Assembly: GCA_017934595.1 (NCBI GenBank)
Contig: JAGBJG010000009.1
Span: forward strand, 839-64,838
Reading direction: 5' to 3'
DNA length: 64,000 nucleotides
Source: Bacilli bacterium
GTDB taxonomy: Bacteria > Bacillota_I > Bacilli_A > RF39 > UBA660
The notes under the pieces were generated by a model. The model was not told where the DNA came from. It did no database searches and saw only the letters and a list, made by a program, of their open reading frames with translations. A program made the translations under genes and the position numbers. This document shows, in pieces, positions 4,383-59,990 of the stretch. Position 1 is the stretch's first letter. Each line of letters opens with the position of its first letter.

Positions 4383-5786
4383 ATGAACGAGGAATATAGT
4401 AACTATTATGACCCAGAACAAAAACGTTCACCAATACTTAAAATTGTAGTTATCGCGATGATATTATTAATCGCTATATTGATAATCGCATTATTTACTA
4501 AAGCCTTCAAAAAAGGTCCGGATTTACACCCAGTTTTATCTAATATGGCTAATAGTTATATTACTAGTGATAAACTACCAAAAGAGGTTGGAGAATGTAA
4601 TACATATGCTTTAAAAGATATGATTGCAAATCAAGATAGTAAAACTAAAAAAGAGTTTGCTAAATGTAATGATCAAGAAACATATGTTAAGGTATGTAAA
4701 ATTGCTAATGATAATTATCAATATACTCCAGTGCTATCATGCAAAAAACAAAAAACTAAGTTTGGTGATTGGCAAACTGGAACACTTGATGACATAATCA
4801 AAAATAATTCTGATGTAGTAATTAGTTATGATGGTCAAGTTTTAGAAAATGGTAATAGAACATATTATCCAAATGACTTAACTGATTTATCAAAAGTATC
4901 AGAATACTATACATCATCTCCTAAAGAAGGATATGTGTATAAGGTAAATCCTCAAGAAGCATATAAATGGTATGTTGAGGGGGATGAAAAAGATTATTAC
5001 AATCATGGTGAGTATGTTGCTACAGCTCCAGATTTATATCCACTTAAAGAGGATGAAAAGACAAAAACATATTTTTCATTATCAAGGCCAAACAGTGCAT
5101 CTTATAGAACTATAGATAATACAGTATTGTATGCAACTGAGTATACATCATATCCATACAAATATGAATGCCAAGATCCTAAATATCAGGGTACAATTAC
5201 TTCTAATACATTATGTGAAAGAAGAAATACTGGAACATTTAATGTAACAGTAAAAATGTATTATACATGTGATGGAAAAAATGAAACTGCAAAAGATGTT
5301 TTATGTAAAGGAAGAAGTGATTGGTCAGAAACTTCATGTAAGAATAGTAATCAAACTATTGATGGTAAAACAAGTGATGGATATAATTACACTAGAAATT
5401 TATGGAATGGTCTAACATGTGTTGAGGCGAATGGATATAAAGTAGTTGATACTGTATCAAAATGGTATAGATTAGCTAAAGTGAATAAATATTATCCTAG
5501 TGATTCATCTAAAGAAACAGATGAAAAAACATATTATATATCAACACCAACACCTGGTGCTAGTAAAGATGAAAGTACTAAAACAACTGCATATCAATAT
5601 TTTAAATTGGTTCCAAATGATTCTACTGAACCTACATGGGTATCAATAGGAGATGCTAATATGAACAAAGAAGAACTTATAAATAGTTTTAAAGAATTAG
5701 GATATAAAGTTAATAATTTCGAAGAAATAGATAAAAATGAAAACACTAAATATCAAGTAGTTATCAAATATAGGAATAGAAAGTAA
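4383..5786 (+). CDS. Hypothetical type II membrane protein with a Cys/Tyr/Lys-rich extracytoplasmic domain
   Basis: A single N-terminal TM (ILKIVVIAMILLIAILIIALF) is followed by about 420 aa with many Cys residues. RBS GGTGTGGTGGA. No family was recognised. Confidence 0.6.
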   Translation: MNEEYSNYYDPEQKRSPILKIVVIAMILLIAILIIALFTKAFKKGPDLHPVLSNMANSYITSDKLPKEVGECNTYALKDMIANQDSKTKKEFAKCNDQETYVKVCKIANDNYQYTPVLSCKKQKTKFGDWQTGTLDDIIKNNSDVVISYDGQVLENGNRTYYPNDLTDLSKVSEYYTSSPKEGYVYKVNPQEAYKWYVEGDEKDYYNHGEYVATAPDLYPLKEDEKTKTYFSLSRPNSASYRTIDNTVLYATEYTSYPYKYECQDPKYQGTITSNTLCERRNTGTFNVTVKMYYTCDGKNETAKDVLCKGRSDWSETSCKNSNQTIDGKTSDGYNYTRNLWNGLTCVEANGYKVVDTVSKWYRLAKVNKYYPSDSSKETDEKTYYISTPTPGASKDESTKTTAYQYFKLVPNDSTEPTWVSIGDANMNKEELINSFKELGYKVNNFEEIDKNENTKYQVVIKYRNRK

Positions 5787-13339: not shown

Positions 13340-13361
13340 AAAAACGACTTAGGTCGTTTTT
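13338..13361. terminator. Bidirectional intrinsic terminator (copy 1 of a near-duplicated sequence)
   Basis: AAAAAAACGAC-TTAG-GTCGTTTTT. The stop codon of the minus-strand gene 13349..13885 lies in the loop. Confidence 0.75.
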
Positions 13362-13885
13362 ATTTTCTTTTTAGTTTCAATATCATTTTTTAAAATAGCT
13401 TGTGTATTTTCATAAGTTTCTTTTTCATCATCGTTTTTATATATTACATTGGCTTTATATAATGCCTTTGCGTACCTAAGATAATTAAAAGTTTCAACAT
13501 CTTTTATAATATCGATAAATCCAAATATATTAATATACTCTTCGAATGATATTTCATTAAGCATTAAAAGTTGATTTATGATGAAGATAGTATCATTAAA
13601 TTCGCCATTATTATATTGTTTTGTATATTTTGTTATATAGTAATTAGAAATTATATTAGCTATTCTATCCATATTATTTTTATATTCATCAATATCTTTA
13701 TCAGTTCCGCCAATCACACCTTTATGTATTAATATATTTGCATAATATTTAGCTTTGCATATAGGGCCTAAATTTTCTATAGCTGGTAGTACAAAGCCAC
13801 AACAAATATTAAATTTTCTAACTGTCAATTTAGTCGATTTAATAGTTTCCATATAACTACTTAATTCTTTTCTTGATATATTCAT
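13349..13885 (-). CDS. Hypothetical protein (178 aa), no recognisable family
   Basis: It is an ORF with RBS GATGGTGAAGA, flanked on both sides by near-identical terminators. Confidence 0.5.
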   Translation of the reverse strand: MNISRKELSSYMETIKSTKLTVRKFNICCGFVLPAIENLGPICKAKYYANILIHKGVIGGTDKDIDEYKNNMDRIANIISNYYITKYTKQYNNGEFNDTIFIINQLLMLNEISFEEYINIFGFIDIIKDVETFNYLRYAKALYKANVIYKNDDEKETYENTQAILKNDIETKKKIKTT

Positions 13886-15081: not shown

Positions 15082-15858
15082 ATGTGGTTTTTAATAGGAT
15101 TTATCGTTTTTGTAGTGCTAATATCAATTAAACAAGTTAATCAATATGAAAGAGGAGTTAAATTTACTTTAGGTAAATTTTCAGGTATTATGAATCCAGG
15201 ATGGAATTTAGTATTACCAATATTCCAATCATATTCAAAAGTTGATATCAGAACAAAAGCAGTTGACGTTCCTGAACAAGACGCTATCACTGGTGATAAC
15301 GTTTCAGTAAGAATCAATGCAGTTATTTACTACAAAGTATTTGATGCTGCTAAAGCTATTCTTGAAGTTGAAAACTTTAGATATGCAGTTAGTCAATTAG
15401 CTCAAACTACTATGCGTAATGCTGTAGGTTCAGTTTCTTTAGATGAACTTTTATCTTCAAGAGAAAAAATTGCTACATCTATTTGTAAAATAATTGATGA
15501 AGCAACTGACCCATGGGGAATTAAAGTTGAAAACGTTGAATTAAAGGAAATTACTTTACCAGAAGAAATGAAACGTGTTATCGCTAAAGTTGCTGAAGCT
15601 GAAAGAGAAAAAGCTGCAGTTATTACTAAAGCAGAAGGTGAAGCTGAAGCTGCTAATAATTTAGCACAAGCTGCTAATATTATGGGTTCAACTCCAGGTG
15701 CACTTCACTTAAGAACTTTAGCTACATTAAACGATTTATCATCAGATCAATCAAATACTATTATATTTGCGATTCCAATTGAAGTATTAAAAGCATTTGA
15801 AGGATTAGATGGAAAAAAAGTTGTTGAAGCTGTAAAAAGCGCTAAAAAAACAAAATAA
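15082..15858 (+). CDS. SPFH/band-7 (stomatin/slipin-like) membrane protein
   Basis: An N-terminal TM is followed by YERGVKFTLGKF...VDVPEQDAITGDNVSVRINAVIYYKV and an Ala/Glu-rich coiled coil typical of the family. Confidence 0.9.
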   Translation: MWFLIGFIVFVVLISIKQVNQYERGVKFTLGKFSGIMNPGWNLVLPIFQSYSKVDIRTKAVDVPEQDAITGDNVSVRINAVIYYKVFDAAKAILEVENFRYAVSQLAQTTMRNAVGSVSLDELLSSREKIATSICKIIDEATDPWGIKVENVELKEITLPEEMKRVIAKVAEAEREKAAVITKAEGEAEAANNLAQAANIMGSTPGALHLRTLATLNDLSSDQSNTIIFAIPIEVLKAFEGLDGKKVVEAVKSAKKTK

Positions 15859-15881
15859 GATATCTTAGGATATCTTTTTTC
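15858..15881. terminator. Bidirectional intrinsic terminator
   Basis: AAGATATC-TTAG-GATATCTT is followed by T-runs on both strands. Confidence 0.8.
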
Positions 15882-15910
15882 TTGATAAAAAGATTAAATC
15901 ATCATATAAT
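15882..15910 (+). promoter_or_regulatory. Consensus sigma-A promoter with no ORF downstream
   Basis: TTGATA (15882-15887), exactly 17 nt spacer, TATAAT (15905-15910). Confidence 0.7.
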
Positions 15911-15916
15911 ATAGAT

Positions 15917-16002
15917 GTAGGAGCTACTAAGTTACTATGCTTGGTAACTACCTTAGATGGCCTTAGCCTAATCCGTTTATGTTAAATGGTTAGGCACTTT
16001 TT
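15917..16002 (+). ncRNA. Candidate small RNA of about 85 nt (putative type I antitoxin)
   Basis: It starts about 7 nt after the -10 element. Hairpin 1 is at 15927-15956 (CTAAGTTAC...GTAAC-bulge-TTAG). Hairpin 2 is GCCTAATC...GGTTAGGC (15966-15995), followed by ACTTTTT. There is no ORF. It is convergent with, and overlaps, the 3' end of the peptide gene. Confidence 0.5.
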
Positions 16003-16073
16003 ATTATATTTAATAAATAAATTATTAAAAGTAATATGATCACTAATTTTAGAAATTTATTGTCTTTCTTCAT
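15990..16073 (-). CDS. Unannotated 27-aa hydrophobic peptide MKKDNKFLKLVIILLLIIYLLNIIKSA (putative type I toxin)
   Basis: Translated by hand. A strong RBS GGAGG lies 8 nt before the ATG. The peptide has a charged N-terminus and a single TM-length hydrophobic core. The SD can pair with CCUUCU just upstream (16082-16099). Confidence 0.5.
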   Translation of the reverse strand: MKKDNKFLKLVIILLLIIYLLNIIKSA

Positions 16074-16209
16074 AGAATCATCCTCCTTTCAAAAGAAGGC
16101 AGTTACCTAACAACTTTTCACTCCTATTAATTAAATACGCCAAAACTTTTTAATATCCTCTTAATTTGGGTGAATTGTGTTCTTTTTGTTATATTATTAG
16201 TAAAAAATG

Positions 16210-16238
16210 TTGACATTAATGGAAAGAATTGGTATAAT
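16210..16238 (+). promoter_or_regulatory. Sigma-A promoter of the tRNA gene
   Basis: TTGACA (16210-16215), 17 nt spacer, TATAAT (16233-16238), with an extended -10 TG at 16230-16231. Confidence 0.8.
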
Positions 16239-16252
16239 CTATTATGTCAGTT

Positions 16253-16330
16253 GGGGAATTAGCTCAGTTGGCTCAGAGCACCTGCCCTGCACGCAGGGGG
16301 TCGCGGGTTCGAGTCCCACATTCTCCACCA
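16253..16330 (+). tRNA. tRNA-Ala (anticodon UGC), CCA-encoded, stand-alone
   Basis: The cloverleaf was folded by hand. Acceptor GGGGAAT/ATTCTCC carries the G3:U70 Ala identity pair. The anticodon stem is CCTGC/GCAGG with loop CCTGCAC, and the T-loop is TTCGAGT. Position 33 is C, and T-stem pair 50:64 is a C.A mismatch. Confidence 0.85.
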
Positions 16331-16341
16331 GATTGATAATA

Positions 16342-16365
16342 AGCTCACTTCGGTGAGTTTTTTTA
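16342..16365 (+). terminator. Intrinsic terminator after the tRNA
   Basis: GCTCAC-TTCG-GTGAGT is followed by a T7 run. Confidence 0.85.
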
Positions 16366-16424
16366 TTGATTTTTATTGATATTTATTGCTGTTATGATAT
16401 AATATTAATTCATGGGTGATCATT

Positions 16425-17042
16425 ATGAATAAATTAGAAAATGAGATAGCTAAATTAAAAAAAGAAGTAGCAGAATTATCTGAAGAAAAAGAAAATTTAG
16501 AAAGTAATAAAATAGTTATTAATTATATAAAAATAGTAGAGACTCTTGCGCAAAAAGAATATTCTTTAATGGATAAGAAACATCAATTGAGAAAAAGTAA
16601 AATCAATAAGGAATATATAAAAATGAAAGGTAAGTATAGTAAATGTCATCATTATACTATAACGGATCCTAAGACTGGATATTCAACATGTATACTATGT
16701 GATATAACAAATGCAGGTAAATTTAAAAATAATCCTACTATAAAAGAAGTTGCTATGGGAATTTATCAAGATAATGAAGGTGGAGATATTTCTATGCATG
16801 CCGTAGCATTACAAAATTGTTTATATGCATGTGATACAAAGATGGCTAAAGCTATTATTACTAAAATTAAAGAAGCTAATAAAGATATTAAAAGGGAAGA
16901 ATTAATTAAATATTTTGAAATAGCTTTAGATAATATGATTGATATTGAAGTGTCTGATGAAAGAATAAATAGTAGGGCTAAAAGATTAGGTGTAAGACCT
17001 ATAAAAGTAAGAAATATATCAGTGAAATGGGAAAAACATTAA
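16425..17042 (+). CDS. Hypothetical protein with an N-terminal coiled coil and a CHH...C..C motif
   Basis: The ORF has a likely start at ATG 16425, behind GGGTGA. It contains KCHHYTITDPKTGYSTCILC. No family was recognised. Confidence 0.5.
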   Translation: MNKLENEIAKLKKEVAELSEEKENLESNKIVINYIKIVETLAQKEYSLMDKKHQLRKSKINKEYIKMKGKYSKCHHYTITDPKTGYSTCILCDITNAGKFKNNPTIKEVAMGIYQDNEGGDISMHAVALQNCLYACDTKMAKAIITKIKEANKDIKREELIKYFEIALDNMIDIEVSDERINSRAKRLGVRPIKVRNISVKWEKH

Positions 17043-17084
17043 ATCTTTACTTTTTATAGATTATGGTATAAAATATTAGAGGAA

Positions 17085-17302
17085 AGCCGAAGAAAAGAAG
17101 AGTAATTAAATTAAAGCATAAAGAGAACTCTATATGGTGTGAAATGAGGATGTAGTAATTTGATGAACATGGTCTTGGAGGCTGGTAAGTGAATAATTAG
17201 CTTATTGCGGGTCATACACGTTACGTATTAGAGATTAGGGAAACCTAAAAAAGAGTGGTACCGCGGTAATTCGCCTCTTAGCTTTATGCTAAGAGTTTTT
17301 TT
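17085..17302 (+). promoter_or_regulatory. T-box riboswitch leader, Met specifier
   Basis: It has an AGAGA box, a TGGTGTGAAATGAGG distal element, a specifier ATG (17169-17171), the T-box sequence AGAGTGGTACCGCGG, and the terminator CTCTTAGC-TTTAT-GCTAAGAG followed by T7. Confidence 0.85.
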
Positions 17303-17320: not shown

Positions 17321-18922
17321 ATGAAAAGAAATGTTTTAGTTACAGGAGCTTGGCCATATGCAAACTATTTATTACATATAGGTCATTTAGTTGCGTTACT
17401 ACCAGGTGATGTAATCGCGAGATATTATAGAATGAATGGTGATAATGTTGTATATGTAAGTGGTTCAGATACACATGGGACACCTATCACTGAAAGAGCT
17501 AAAAAAGAAGGTAAAACACCTGCTGAAATAGCTATGTATTATCATAATGAAGATGTTAAGAGTTTAGAAAAAGCCGGTTTTTCTTATGATATGTATACAT
17601 CAACTGAATCAGATTATCATAAAGAAAAAGTTATGAAATACTTTAAAGAAATGTATGATAACGGTAATATTTATGAAAAAGAAGAAGAGCAAGATTACTG
17701 CCCTAAATGTAACAAATTCTTATCTGATAGAGAAATCATTGGTACATGCCCACACTGTGGTGGAGAAGCTAAAGGTGATCAATGTGATAGTTGCCTTGCT
17801 TCATTAGAATCTAATGAATTATTAAATAGAAGATGTAGTACTTGTGGATCAACTCCAGAACTTAGAAAAAATAAACATTTATATTTAGAATTATCTAAAT
17901 TCCAAAAAGATATTGAAAATTTAATTAAAGAAAGAGAATCTATTTGGAGAAAGAATGCTTTAAATGAATCAAAAAAATTCTTATCTATGGGATTAATTGA
18001 TAGAGCTGCAACTAGACAACTTGATTGGGGTATTAAAATACCAGTAGATGGATATGAAGATAAAAGAATTTATGTATGGATTGAAGCTGTATTAGGTTAT
18101 ATTACTACTTGTGAAAGAGTATTAGAAGAAAGAGGAGAAAGTTTTAAAGATTTTATAACTGATCCTAACTTAATTAGTTATTACTCAATTGGTAAAGATA
18201 ATATTCCTTTCCATACAATAATTTTCCCAGCTATTTTAAAAGCTATAGGTGAAAACATGAGTTTACCTACACATATTATTTCATGTGAATTCATGAATAT
18301 GTCAGATGAAAAGATGAGTAAGAGTAAAGGTAACTTAATTACTATTAATGATATAGTTGATAAATTTGGTAAAGATACAGTTAGATATTTCATGATCGCG
18401 AATGGTCCTGAAAAGAAAGATACTAACTTCTCTGAAAATGATTTAATTATGGCACATAATAAATTCTTAGTAGGTGGTTTAGGAAACTTTATTAATAGAA
18501 ACGTTTCATTTATTAATAAGAAATTTGATGGTGTAGTAAGTGAAGGTATAGTTAATTCTGATATTATTAAATTAACTAAAGATACATATAGTGAAGTAGC
18601 TAAGTTAATTGAAGCAGGAGAATTAAGAGCTGCTTTAGATAAAGTATTTGATTATGTATCAGAAGCAAATAAATTTTATGATAATAGTACACCATGGATT
18701 CAAGTTAAAGAAGATATGGATGCATTCAATAATACAACATATACTTGTATGTATATGATAGCTAACTTATCTAACTTATTAAGACCATTTATTCCAGATA
18801 CAACCGATAGAATGAAAGCATTATTAGGTATAGAAGAAAATGGTTGGAATGAAGTTACATTAAGTGGTGATATCAAATTAAATGATATTGGTTTACTTTT
18901 TGAAAGAATAGATGTTAAATAA
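17321..18922 (+). CDS. metG: Methionine--tRNA ligase (short form)
   Basis: It has a HIGH-type motif (LLHIGHL), KMSKS, and a Cys-rich knuckle CPKC...CPHCGG...CDSC...CSTCG. Confidence 0.95.
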   Translation: MKRNVLVTGAWPYANYLLHIGHLVALLPGDVIARYYRMNGDNVVYVSGSDTHGTPITERAKKEGKTPAEIAMYYHNEDVKSLEKAGFSYDMYTSTESDYHKEKVMKYFKEMYDNGNIYEKEEEQDYCPKCNKFLSDREIIGTCPHCGGEAKGDQCDSCLASLESNELLNRRCSTCGSTPELRKNKHLYLELSKFQKDIENLIKERESIWRKNALNESKKFLSMGLIDRAATRQLDWGIKIPVDGYEDKRIYVWIEAVLGYITTCERVLEERGESFKDFITDPNLISYYSIGKDNIPFHTIIFPAILKAIGENMSLPTHIISCEFMNMSDEKMSKSKGNLITINDIVDKFGKDTVRYFMIANGPEKKDTNFSENDLIMAHNKFLVGGLGNFINRNVSFINKKFDGVVSEGIVNSDIIKLTKDTYSEVAKLIEAGELRAALDKVFDYVSEANKFYDNSTPWIQVKEDMDAFNNTTYTCMYMIANLSNLLRPFIPDTTDRMKALLGIEENGWNEVTLSGDIKLNDIGLLFERIDVK

Positions 18923-18957: not shown

Positions 18958-19159
18958 TATAAATTGTTGATGTGGAGAAGTAATATATATGATATTTCTA
19001 GAGAGTCAGTGGTTGGTGTAAACTGATAATTAGTATATATGAATAACACCGCGGAATGCTTGATTGAACTTAAGTAGGTCGAGCCGGGATGACCGTTATC
19101 AATTAAGATAAACAAAGGATGGTACCGTCTATATGACTCCTTATACCATTCTTTTTTTG
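18958..19159 (+). promoter_or_regulatory. T-box riboswitch leader, Asn specifier
   Basis: Promoter TTGACT-17-TATAAT (18923-18951). It has an AGAGAG box, a GGTTGGTGTAAACTG distal element, a specifier AAC (19045-19047) followed by A, the T-box sequence AAAGGATGGTACCG, and a terminator followed by T7. Confidence 0.85.
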
Positions 19160-48051: not shown

Positions 48052-48388
48052 AATATCTTAGGCAAACGCTGCAATTATTTGTAGAGGAAAGTCCATGCTT
48101 GCACTGTCTGCGATGACAGTAGTGATTGTGCTAAGGGAAAAAATAACCTTAGGTAGCTTATGCTAACGGCAAATAGCTAGTCTAAGTCATAGATATGATT
48201 AGTTACTAACGTGCCACAGAAACGAGCTTAGTGGAAACGCTAAGATGAAACGAGGTAAACCCCACAAGCAAGAAATCCAAATTTTGGTAGGAGAGCTTAG
48301 ATAAGGAACTGAACTGATTCTAGGACCTGTAAGGTAGATAAATGTTTGCCGCCCGTTAGGGTACAGAACATGGCTTATTAGATATTTT
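48050..48388 (+). ncRNA. rnpB: RNase P RNA (bacterial type B, compact)
   Basis: It has the universal motifs GAGGAAAGTCCATGC near the 5' end and ACAGAACATGGCTTA near the 3' end. P1 pairs AAAATATCT (48050-48058) with AGATATTTT (48380-48388). Confidence 0.9.
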
Positions 48389-59667: not shown

Positions 59668-59703
59668 TTTGACATGGAAAAAACTTTATGTTATATTAAA
59701 GAT

Positions 59704-59990
59704 GCGTTGAGGGAGAAAAGTACCCAAAAGTGTTATTCGAGTGAGTTAGGTATAGTGTGAACTAATATTAACCTTTGGCGAAAGAACACTCCTGAGCAGA
59801 CTACCGAAAGGTAACCCAAGTAGACTAGTCCGGAAAGCAATCCGTTACCATATTGCTAGGTTTGTTAGAACTGAAAAGTGATTACTGTAATAACAAACCA
59901 TCTTTCTAGATGGTTTTTTAAGTAATAATTAAGGTGGCACCGCGGATACCCGTATTCGTCCTTATTGTAGGATGAGTACGGGTTTTTATA
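59704..59990 (+). promoter_or_regulatory. T-box riboswitch leader, Asn specifier (long form)
   Basis: Promoter TTGACA (59669-59674), 17 nt spacer, TATATT. It has an AGTGA box, a GGTATAGTGTGAACT distal element, a specifier AAC (59785-59787) followed by A, and the T-box sequence AATTAAGGTGGCACCGCGG (59927-59945). The terminator is ACCCGTATTCGTCC...GGATGAGTACGGGT followed by T5. Confidence 0.85.

Follow-up and report, generated by a model that had tools for sequence, protein, structure and literature searches.

What occupies the 394 nt between the slipin (Band_7) gene (15082-15858) and the tRNA-Ala gene (16253-16330) of a Bacilli bacterium (GCA_017934595.1, contig JAGBJG010000009.1)? The window analysed here is the whole 64,000-nt stretch from position 839 to 64,838 of that contig, and all coordinates are counted from its first letter unless a locus number precedes them. 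The genome has a GC content of 27%, and we take the host group to be RF39-like; the best GTDB matches of the slipin gene are gut metagenome-assembled genomes (MAGs) titled 'uncultured Bacilli', 'Tenericutes', 'Mycoplasma sp. CAG:611' and 'Clostridium sp. CAG:594'. The gap is otherwise unannotated, and gene annotation of the source contig does not call the 27-amino acid (aa) open reading frame (ORF) that it contains. A first-pass annotation, made from the letters of the window, suggested a type I toxin-antitoxin (TA) module, in which a small hydrophobic peptide gene faces a convergent small RNA (sRNA). With a probability of about two in three, as judged from sequence comparison, the block 15882-16192 was acquired recently and is a diverged copy of a type-I-TA-like peptide/antisense module, belonging to a family common among low-GC gut Bacilli that have not been cultured. 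The parts of the locus are as follows, where SD stands for Shine-Dalgarno sequence and UTR for untranslated region.

15882-16192, unstranded: whole module, an insertion of about 311 nt reaching from the slipin terminator to the tRNA-Ala promoter
15858-15881, unstranded: slipin terminator hairpin, AT-rich and bidirectional, AAGATATC-TTAG-GATATCTT, with T-runs on both strands
15882-15910, plus strand: sRNA promoter, TTGATA-17-TATAAT, score 11/12
15917-16002, plus strand: antisense sRNA and putative antitoxin, about 86 nt, with 5' domain 15918-15965, terminator hairpin 15966-15995 and U-run 15997-16002
15990-16073, minus strand: peptide gene and putative toxin, 27 aa, MKKDNKFLKLVIILLLIIYLLNIIKSA
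16082-16099, minus strand: SD (GGAGG, 16086-16082) in an anti-SD hairpin, CCUUCUU-UUGA-AAGGAGG
16095-16128, minus strand: 5' arm of a long-distance helix at the start of the peptide mRNA, UAGGAGU...GGUAACUGCCUU; inverted repeat I3
15918-15955, minus strand: 3' arm of the same helix, in the 3' UTR of the peptide mRNA; exact complement of the sRNA 5' domain
16130-16137, minus strand: degenerate remnant of the peptide mRNA promoter, TATTTAAT at the position of the family TGnTATAAT, without a -35 element

The peptide gene proposed in the first-pass annotation is present in the program-made ORF list at 16073..15990 on the minus strand, and the GGAGG does lie 8 nt 5' of its ATG. The encoded peptide has an uncharged stretch of 15 residues. 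GGAGG-N5-10-ATG occurs 20 times in the window, and 17 of the 20 sites precede ORFs of at least 79 aa. In sequences simulated from the window with a first-order Markov model, sites of this kind that precede an ORF of at least 20 aa number 0.53 per 128 kb, so the chance of finding one in a block of about 311 nt is about 0.003. The pairing of the SD with the CCUUCUU just upstream, also proposed before, appears in every predicted fold of the minus-strand RNA; this hairpin contains a U.G pair, which is a C-A mismatch on the plus strand.

On the plus strand, the promoter TTGATA-17-TATAAT was found where it had been placed, but sites as good occur 15 times in the window against 8.6 ± 3.0 in simulated sequences; an 11/12 promoter is not rare alone, and it counts only together with the structured RNA and the terminator 3' of it. 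The RNA expected from it has two structured domains and a U-run ending at 16002, as had been described. Its predicted fold has an energy of -29.1 kcal/mol (z = -3.1), matched by 1 of 200 shuffles, while the reverse strand of the same region reaches -20.5 kcal/mol, which is 8.6 worse, and the plus-strand fold contains 4 G-U pairs. The sRNA region is an island of 40–42% GC between flanks of 5–17% GC. Rfam gave zero matches at E <= 10 for 15859-16250 and the domain-IV motifs of signal recognition particle (SRP) RNA are absent, so we rejected the identities SRP RNA, 6S RNA, riboswitch and tRNA-like RNA for this transcript.

The sRNA and the peptide gene overlap as the first-pass annotation had it: the terminator hairpin 15966-15995 includes the stop codon (15992-15990), and the sRNA, which ends at 16002, covers ORF codons 24-27 as well as the stop codon and lies otherwise within the 3' UTR. 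The bidirectional terminator at 15858-15881, a hairpin followed by a T-run on both strands, is likewise present; it was left uncalled by the automatic scan because it is AT-rich, and it is likely the end of a read-through peptide mRNA. Pairing of the sRNA in trans with the SD region was tried as an additional contact and rejected, since its energy (-33.2 kcal/mol) is not better than that of shuffles (-31.1 ± 4.1), 95 of 300 being as good.

Moreover, the two ends of the predicted peptide mRNA pair with each other. The helix between 16095-16128 and 15918-15955 reaches -32.6 kcal/mol, whereas shuffles reach -14.9 ± 3.3 and 0 of 1000 attain -32.6. This 5' UTR-3' UTR pairing had been missed in the first-pass annotation, together with the recent insertion of the block and the decayed peptide promoter of the window copy, both described below.

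The block 15882-16192 is strain-variable DNA. In close relatives (slipin identity 93–99%), 11 distinct versions of this locus lack it. In 9 of the 11 (L082, L085, L087, L088, L091, L092, L094, L095, L217; L numbers denote loci), the tRNA-Ala promoter comes directly after the slipin stop codon and its short terminator hairpin, and in the other two (L219, L221) a NUDIX gene stands at that place. The slipin proteins of contigs L217 and L218 are 99% identical to that of the window, so the module was gained recently, within the strain or the species. In the source-like contig L081 the block is identical, and it is also found in L222, an independent metagenome contig, with 3 single-nucleotide polymorphisms (SNPs) inside it and an unchanged ORF. 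One SNP (15924 C>T) is the only one that falls in the 5'-3' helix, and it turns a U.G pair into a U-A pair. The hairpin type of the terminator 15858-15881 is also present in the module-free relatives L088 and L095; the terminator is ancestral by this comparison and marks the left boundary of the insertion. At the borders, a search for target-site duplications or terminal inverted repeats returned only low-complexity T-rich similarity. In the GTDB genomes, 80 loci were anchored by slipin at 70–85% identity, of which 0 are syntenic and 0 carry a module downstream, and exact-pattern scans for the window copy gave zero matches.

The surroundings of the insertion vary as well. The slipin terminator has two unrelated forms in close relatives, GATATC-N4-GATATC (window, L088, L095) and GGTAGAAATACC (L217, L094, L082). 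The nearest relatives of the window carry the other form, and their stop codon differs too (TAA vs TAG), so the recombination that brought the module may have replaced the 3' end of the slipin gene as well. The tRNA-Ala promoter (16210-16238) is a perfect 12/12 TTGACA-17-TATAAT with a TG extension and is conserved in all relatives. The DNA beyond tRNA-Ala and slipin (window 16331-17050; L088, L091, L095, L096, L217, L219) is a rearrangement hot spot among close relatives, containing a lineage-specific gene of 205–208 aa (window), a phage integrase with a helix-turn-helix/S24 repressor (L091), SpoIID (L088), tRNA-Gln/Thr (L096) or the NUDIX gene directly 3' of slipin (L219/L221). No relative of the 205-aa protein of the window was found among GTDB representative genomes. 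Farther upstream, a 178-aa minus-strand ORF (13349-13885) between pheT and a 344-aa gene is present in the window/L081 and in the contig of P0003; L082-L087 have no such ORF, and a gene of about 349 aa directly follows pheT in them.

Further modules were identified by scanning the retrieved loci for SD-preceded hydrophobic mini-ORFs in intergenic DNA. In L032, the SD-preceded mini-ORF 5311-5403 encodes the 30-aa peptide MKTKTFIVKVLKLIAIILLLSTLLVLAIKK, with a convergent promoter at 5539-5511 and a minus-strand terminator (5426-5402) that abuts the stop codon. In the predicted L032 mRNA, a 28-bp helix joins the first and last nucleotides and is followed by a U-run (z = -7.2). L021 is a third example of this architecture and has a 30-nt motif in common with L032, located at the mRNA terminator/sRNA 5' end. 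Using a 24-specified-base version of this motif against the GTDB species-representative genomes, at least 120 stretches were found. Among the matches listed, mostly MAGs, the record titles name Bacilli, 'Tenericutes', Mycoplasma, Clostridium/Clostridia or Firmicutes, apart from two, 'uncultured Muribaculaceae' and 'Roseburia sp.'.

Copies form tandem arrays of 2–4 at several loci, spaced 390–480 nt, and L208 has four. A tRNA gene lies within 300 nt of 41 of 132 modules (Leu 17, Arg 9, Thr 7, Met 5, Ala 2, Lys 1). In the tRNA-adjacent modules (e.g. L032 5511-5669), the 3' end of the tRNA faces the sRNA-promoter side in every case, with a small hairpin and a T-run between the tRNA and the sRNA -35 element. 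The window copy is reversed, with its peptide side toward the tRNA-Ala promoter. About 270 nt upstream of the L021 module stands a gene (L021 5404-6576) that we take, from its N-terminal sequence judged by eye, to encode an IS30-like transposase, and in L127 and L184 long ORFs, presumably ISL3-like transposases by the same kind of judgement, abut truncated modules without a peptide side.

The family is not covered by the resources searched. Pfam, NCBIfam, PHROG and Rfam contain no family that matches the modules: Pfam has no hit for the window or family peptides, NCBIfam gives only chance sub-threshold hits, and Rfam has no hit at E <= 10 in the window region, nor at E <= 1 in five family loci. 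The motif was either not found in the phage, plasmid and IMG/VR collections or found there as chance matches only. By exact look-up in a collection of 15 billion proteins, the 27-aa window peptide is absent and the 30-aa L032 peptide is a singleton cluster. A literature search returned no paper with the peptide strings and none linking type I TA with RF39. The family thus appears to be uncatalogued so far, and on sequence grounds we regard it as a new family within a known type I kind of layout.

Generally, the family peptide mRNA is predicted to be about 234 nt long and to start about 6 nt after a promoter of the form TTgTtT-17-(TG)nTATAaT, whose score has its mode at 9 (57 of 97 modules) and is at least 9 in 76 of 97. 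The helix partner of its 5' arm (UAGGAA...) is a 3' arm located immediately 5' of the U-run. Cognate arms pair at -31.4 ± 7.0 kcal/mol, compared with -18.0 ± 4.9 for arms swapped between subfamilies, and while the arm sequences vary between subfamilies, the bipartite geometry with a 7–8-nt bulge is constant. On the opposite strand, the family sRNA of about 115 nt has its own extended -10 promoter, scoring 9–12 of 12 in all but 16 copies. It begins with an invariant 5' stem-loop GUCAAGGNAACUUGC, followed by an A-run complementary to the mRNA terminator and by hairpin 2, in which 5 pairs show compensatory change. Since hairpin 2 is complementary to the mRNA 3' arm, its 3' half is a near-copy of the mRNA 5' arm. 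In total, the sRNA is complementary to about 85–100 nt of the mRNA, which comprise the 3' UTR and the last codons. Covariation of the hairpins, which had been suggested as a check on the first-pass annotation, is thus present: the RNA helices of the family are kept by compensatory change.

The effect of these structures on the SD was modelled. The unpaired probability of the SD is 0.15 in the full-length mRNA, 0.15 with the 3' UTR blocked and 0.25 in the nascent mRNA. A tightening of the ribosome-binding site (RBS) by the sRNA, like that of SR4, is suggested by the window alone (0.39 -> 0.01 unpaired), and is not supported as a general feature across 46 modules, in which access rises in 20 and falls in 20.

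An SD-preceded ORF of 24–31 aa is kept in 98 of 119 unique modules. The peptides form at least 6 subfamilies, namely MKTKTFIIKVLKLIAIILFLLIIMIVVIKK, MKKKDLLISFLILIIILLIVSLMILCIKK, MTKREFSQFIIILLLFLVVIILLLK, MNKKDFLILSLIILIFLLVLLLFIVLI, MRKSEKYLCTIIILLIIVILVILIKIVPTV and MTKKDFLIFALIVIIILLILLLFK, which have in common only a basic N-terminus, an Ile/Leu-rich helix of about 18–20 residues and usually a terminal Lys or Lys-Lys. Within subfamilies, the variable sites are distributed over codon positions 1/2/3 as 81/37/109 (chi-square about 35, 2 degrees of freedom); this codon-periodic variation indicates that the hydrophobic ORF is translated and under coding constraint. The C-terminal Lys-Lys codons (AAAAAA/AAGAAA before the stop; e.g. 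L097) template the sRNA terminator U-run on the other strand, and therefore the conserved terminal lysines may reflect a constraint on the RNA as much as on the protein. In about 15–20 copies the peptide side is truncated, frameshifted or interrupted by a premature stop while the sRNA side is kept. Such frequent loss would be expected of a toxin gene and may be taken as an indirect hint of toxicity, and only as that.

The window copy was then compared with the family. A family profile built without the window detects 16115-16011 on the minus strand by nhmmer (E = 3.1e-4), the sole window hit below E = 0.1, and blastn against subfamily-B modules gives up to 69% identity over 137 nt (E = 1.6e-7; L097). 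The full-length alignment lines up the 5' arm, the anti-SD/SD hairpin, the ATGAAGAAA start, the ORF, the sRNA terminator and the 3' arm. The SD hairpin of the window aligns with CUUUCUUAUGAAAGGAGG of subfamily B, the sRNA 5' domain (15918-15965) is homologous to family hairpin 2, and the 5'-3' helix begins with UAGGA near the mRNA 5' end and has the bipartite geometry of the family. The family sRNA 5' stem-loop GUCAAGGNAACUUGC, the A-run and the promoter motif region TTATTTTATGCAAGTTNCCTTGACA are absent from the window even at 3 mismatches. Its sRNA promoter is non-homologous to that of the family, and the -10 element sits where the family has CATAAAAT, so the window sRNA begins directly at hairpin 2. 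By these comparisons, the window copy is an atypical, diverged and possibly decaying family member.

From the above, the locus and its family carry the hallmarks by which a type I TA system would be recognized in sequence: a small hydrophobic, putatively membrane-spanning ORF with a strong SD, SD sequestration and further mRNA structure predicted to restrain translation, and a cis-antisense sRNA that converges on the ORF and has a promoter and a terminator to itself. The original proposal, an uncharacterised type I TA system of the Bacillota type, is supported as far as computation allows. Homology to txpA/RatA, bsrG/SR4 or Fst is not supported, given zero Pfam and Rfam matches, and the likeness is architectural only.

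Several observations weigh against this assignment. Sequence homology to known type I toxin or antitoxin families was not found in Pfam, NCBIfam, PHROG or Rfam, and the support for family members is at the level of sequence, their hosts being uncultured. ORFs rich in Lys, Ile and Leu arise easily in an AT-rich genome, so peptide composition alone is weak evidence, and the excess of damaged peptide sides is a biased count because the search motif sits on the sRNA side. Blocking the 3' UTR with the sRNA has no consistent modelled effect on SD access across the 46 modules (20 up, 20 down), and therefore the mode of repression is taken from analogy only. Lastly, the window copy lacks elements that the family has: its best peptide promoter scores 8/12, with TATTTAAT in place of the family TGnTATAAT and no -35 element, and the U-run of its mRNA terminator is mutated, AUCUAUAUUAUAU in place of UUUUUAUUUUAU, so that the peptide may not be made in the window.

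The last point leads to the reading of the window copy as a relic, in which the sRNA is still made and the peptide gene is silent, leaving an orphan antitoxin or a plain sRNA gene beside a dead ORF. We hold this to be a serious possibility, although not the one that we favour. The first-pass annotation had remarked that no convincing promoter for the peptide mRNA could be seen, which is correct: no minus-strand sigma-70 site of at least 9/12 exists in the locus, and the family comparison explains this, because the homologous promoter is present in mutated form. The disrupted -10 element in an 8/12 promoter without -35, the mutated terminator U-run, the lack of an upstream minus-strand gene that could give read-through, and the clear loss of the peptide side in other family copies all fit a relic. 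Against it, the ORF, the SD, the anti-SD hairpin and the 5'-3' helix are all intact in the window, the single helix SNP of L222 strengthens a pair, and a very recent insertion leaves little time for decay. A weak toxin promoter beside a strong antitoxin promoter is, moreover, normal in chromosomal type I systems. Given the decayed peptide promoter and the strong sRNA promoter, the window copy is probably either kept silent or becoming an antitoxin-only relic.

For the family as a whole, a cis-antisense RNA could instead tune the level of a small membrane protein without toxicity, such as a regulator or a subunit of a membrane complex. The SD, the constraint on the ORF and the antisense RNA would fit such a protein equally well, and neither SD sequestration nor antisense control is confined to toxin genes. 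We nevertheless consider it unlikely. Many copies at unrelated loci, tandem arrays and presence or absence between strains are typical of selfish or addictive modules; the peptides diverge into at least 6 subfamilies in which only charge and hydrophobicity are kept; two independent layers are predicted to block translation; and peptide-side pseudogenes are frequent.

It is very improbable that the repeats are a non-autonomous mobile element like a miniature inverted-repeat transposable element (MITE), with the arms as terminal inverted repeats and the ORF and promoters as incidental contents. The numerous dispersed copies, the insertion polymorphism, the inverted repeats of about 30 bp around about 170 nt, the position of 41 of 132 copies next to tRNA gene 3' ends, and the insertion sequences beside or inside some copies (presumed from the transposase calls by eye) agree with such an element. 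Its inverted repeats, however, are internal, with the promoters and a terminator outside them, and the arms form a bipartite helix with a conserved bulge that changes by compensation between subfamilies, unlike conserved transposase-binding sites. Neither the codon-periodic variation of the ORF nor the conserved SD is expected of it, and the insertion in the window shows no clear target-site duplication. The least probable alternative is a secreted signal or bacteriocin-like pro-peptide, since the shape of a bare signal peptide (MKK..., hydrophobic core, ...KSA) and a weak NCBIfam match, below threshold, to PhrA-type peptides (E = 0.41) are opposed by a score far under the family cut-off (10.9 vs 40 bits), by the lack of a receptor, processing or export gene with the 311-nt module or the family copies, and by the Lys-Lys that ends most family peptides right after the helix and leaves no mature part.

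If the type-I-TA-like reading of the block is followed, the minus strand would give an mRNA of about 210–240 nt for the 27-aa peptide, with a Lys-rich N-terminus and one membrane-spanning helix, presumed to be a membrane toxin. Two structures would hold this mRNA poorly translatable, the anti-SD hairpin over GGAGG and the 5' UTR-3' UTR helix of about 30 bp that closes the molecule; by analogy with hok and aapA, the closure would keep the full-length mRNA inert and stable (PMC6733600). The plus strand would give the sRNA of about 86 nt from its near-consensus promoter, perfectly complementary to the 3' UTR, the 3' arm and the last codons of the mRNA. Excess sRNA would pair with the 3' UTR, the long duplex would be cleaved, and the peptide mRNA would be destroyed ahead of activation; that RNase III makes this cut we infer from txpA/RatA, bsrG/SR4, bsrE/SR5 and yonT/SR6 (PMC5848175). 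Translation might be licensed by processing or by a stress-dependent loss of the sRNA. Transcription, toxicity and RNase-dependent repression are thus predicted from the sequence features and from these analogies.

A bolder version of this scheme can be put forward tentatively, as one that we think more probably wrong than right. The modules may represent a new abundant type I TA family, specific to genome-reduced uncultured gut Bacilli, with a hybrid logic that would be without precedent, in which the mRNA is closed by a hok/AapA-style helix that doubles as intrinsic terminator, and the sRNA, a near-copy of the 5' arm, competes for the 3' arm, opens the mRNA and marks it for duplex cleavage. 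Units of about 300–480 nt would then spread between strains without a mobility gene, preferring sites just downstream of tRNA genes. An antisense RNA that targets the 3' strand of the closing helix by mimicking the 5' arm would be an unusual combination and possibly a new variant.

Among known systems, bsrG/SR4, bsrE/SR5, yonT/SR6 and txpA/RatA of B. subtilis are the nearest in layout. They share with the family the convergent genes, the SD held in structure, the small hydrophobic peptide with a single helix, and a cis-antisense sRNA of about 100 nt that has its own promoter and terminator and whose overlap with the mRNA takes in the 3' UTR and the last part of the toxin ORF. In Gram-positive type I families the antisense RNA lies on the 3' side and overlaps the ORF end, and both the mRNA length (about 234 nt) and the layout of the new family match them (PMC8594479). 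Binding at the 3' end recruits RNase III in the four B. subtilis systems, and SR4 also tightens RBS occlusion (PMC5848175), a switch that modelling does not support for the family. Unlike the B. subtilis systems, the family has no peptide or RNA sequence similarity to them, its peptides are shorter (24–31 aa vs 38–59), and its mRNA is closed by the 5'-3' helix of about 30 bp, whose 3' strand is the target of the sRNA. The B. subtilis loci stand on prophages or prophage-like elements, whereas searches of phage, plasmid and viral collections did not find the family motif beyond chance matches.

A full-length toxin mRNA locked by a 5'-3' long-distance interaction is known from hok/Sok of enterobacterial plasmids and chromosomes and from aapA/IsoA of Helicobacter pylori (PMC6733600). 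The family resembles these two in the 5'-3' locking, in multiple copies on a chromosome and in SD-sequestering local hairpins that could act during transcription (PMC6733600). Both are Gram-negative families, though, and their antisense RNA overlaps the 5' part or the ORF and not the 3' UTR. In addition, the long-distance interaction of hok/aapA itself supplies the anti-SD, while the family uses a separate local hairpin and its helix mainly joins the ends; activation by 3' trimming is established for hok/aapA and is a conjecture for the family.

Fst/RNAII (par of pAD1) and SprA1/SprA1as are Bacillota systems in which, as in the family, the two genes are transcribed convergently into a shared terminator region, structure in the 5' region restrains translation, and the putative or known toxin is a small membrane peptide. 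The family peptides have no match to the Pfam Fst model, and they are without the Pro/Gly that we take to be part of the Fst core motif. Unlike the family sRNA, the antisense RNAs of these two systems do not overlap the ORF (PMC8594479).

The window holds other RNA elements. A T-box leader (17081-17281) upstream of the methionyl-tRNA synthetase gene (17321-18922) scores 86.1 bits, just below the Rfam gathering score of 93; two more T-boxes (18958-19144, 59698-59966) are above threshold, and a class B RNase P RNA lies at 48053-48382.

The distribution of type I TA families is regarded as narrow, and short peptides and RNA antitoxins make such families difficult to detect. In the T1TAdb paper, 24 type I families are described, and neither Tenericutes nor Mollicutes are mentioned (PMC8594479). 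If the interpretation given here is true, the type I TA class would be extended by more than 100 loci to uncultured small-genome gut Bacilli, a lineage without catalogued members, and membership in this family would account for the previously unannotated gap between slipin and tRNA-Ala in the window. The family would also be a concrete model for ORFs that gene callers skip, and its covarying mRNA/sRNA pairs would offer a natural series for the study of 5'-3' closure combined with 3'-end antisense targeting.

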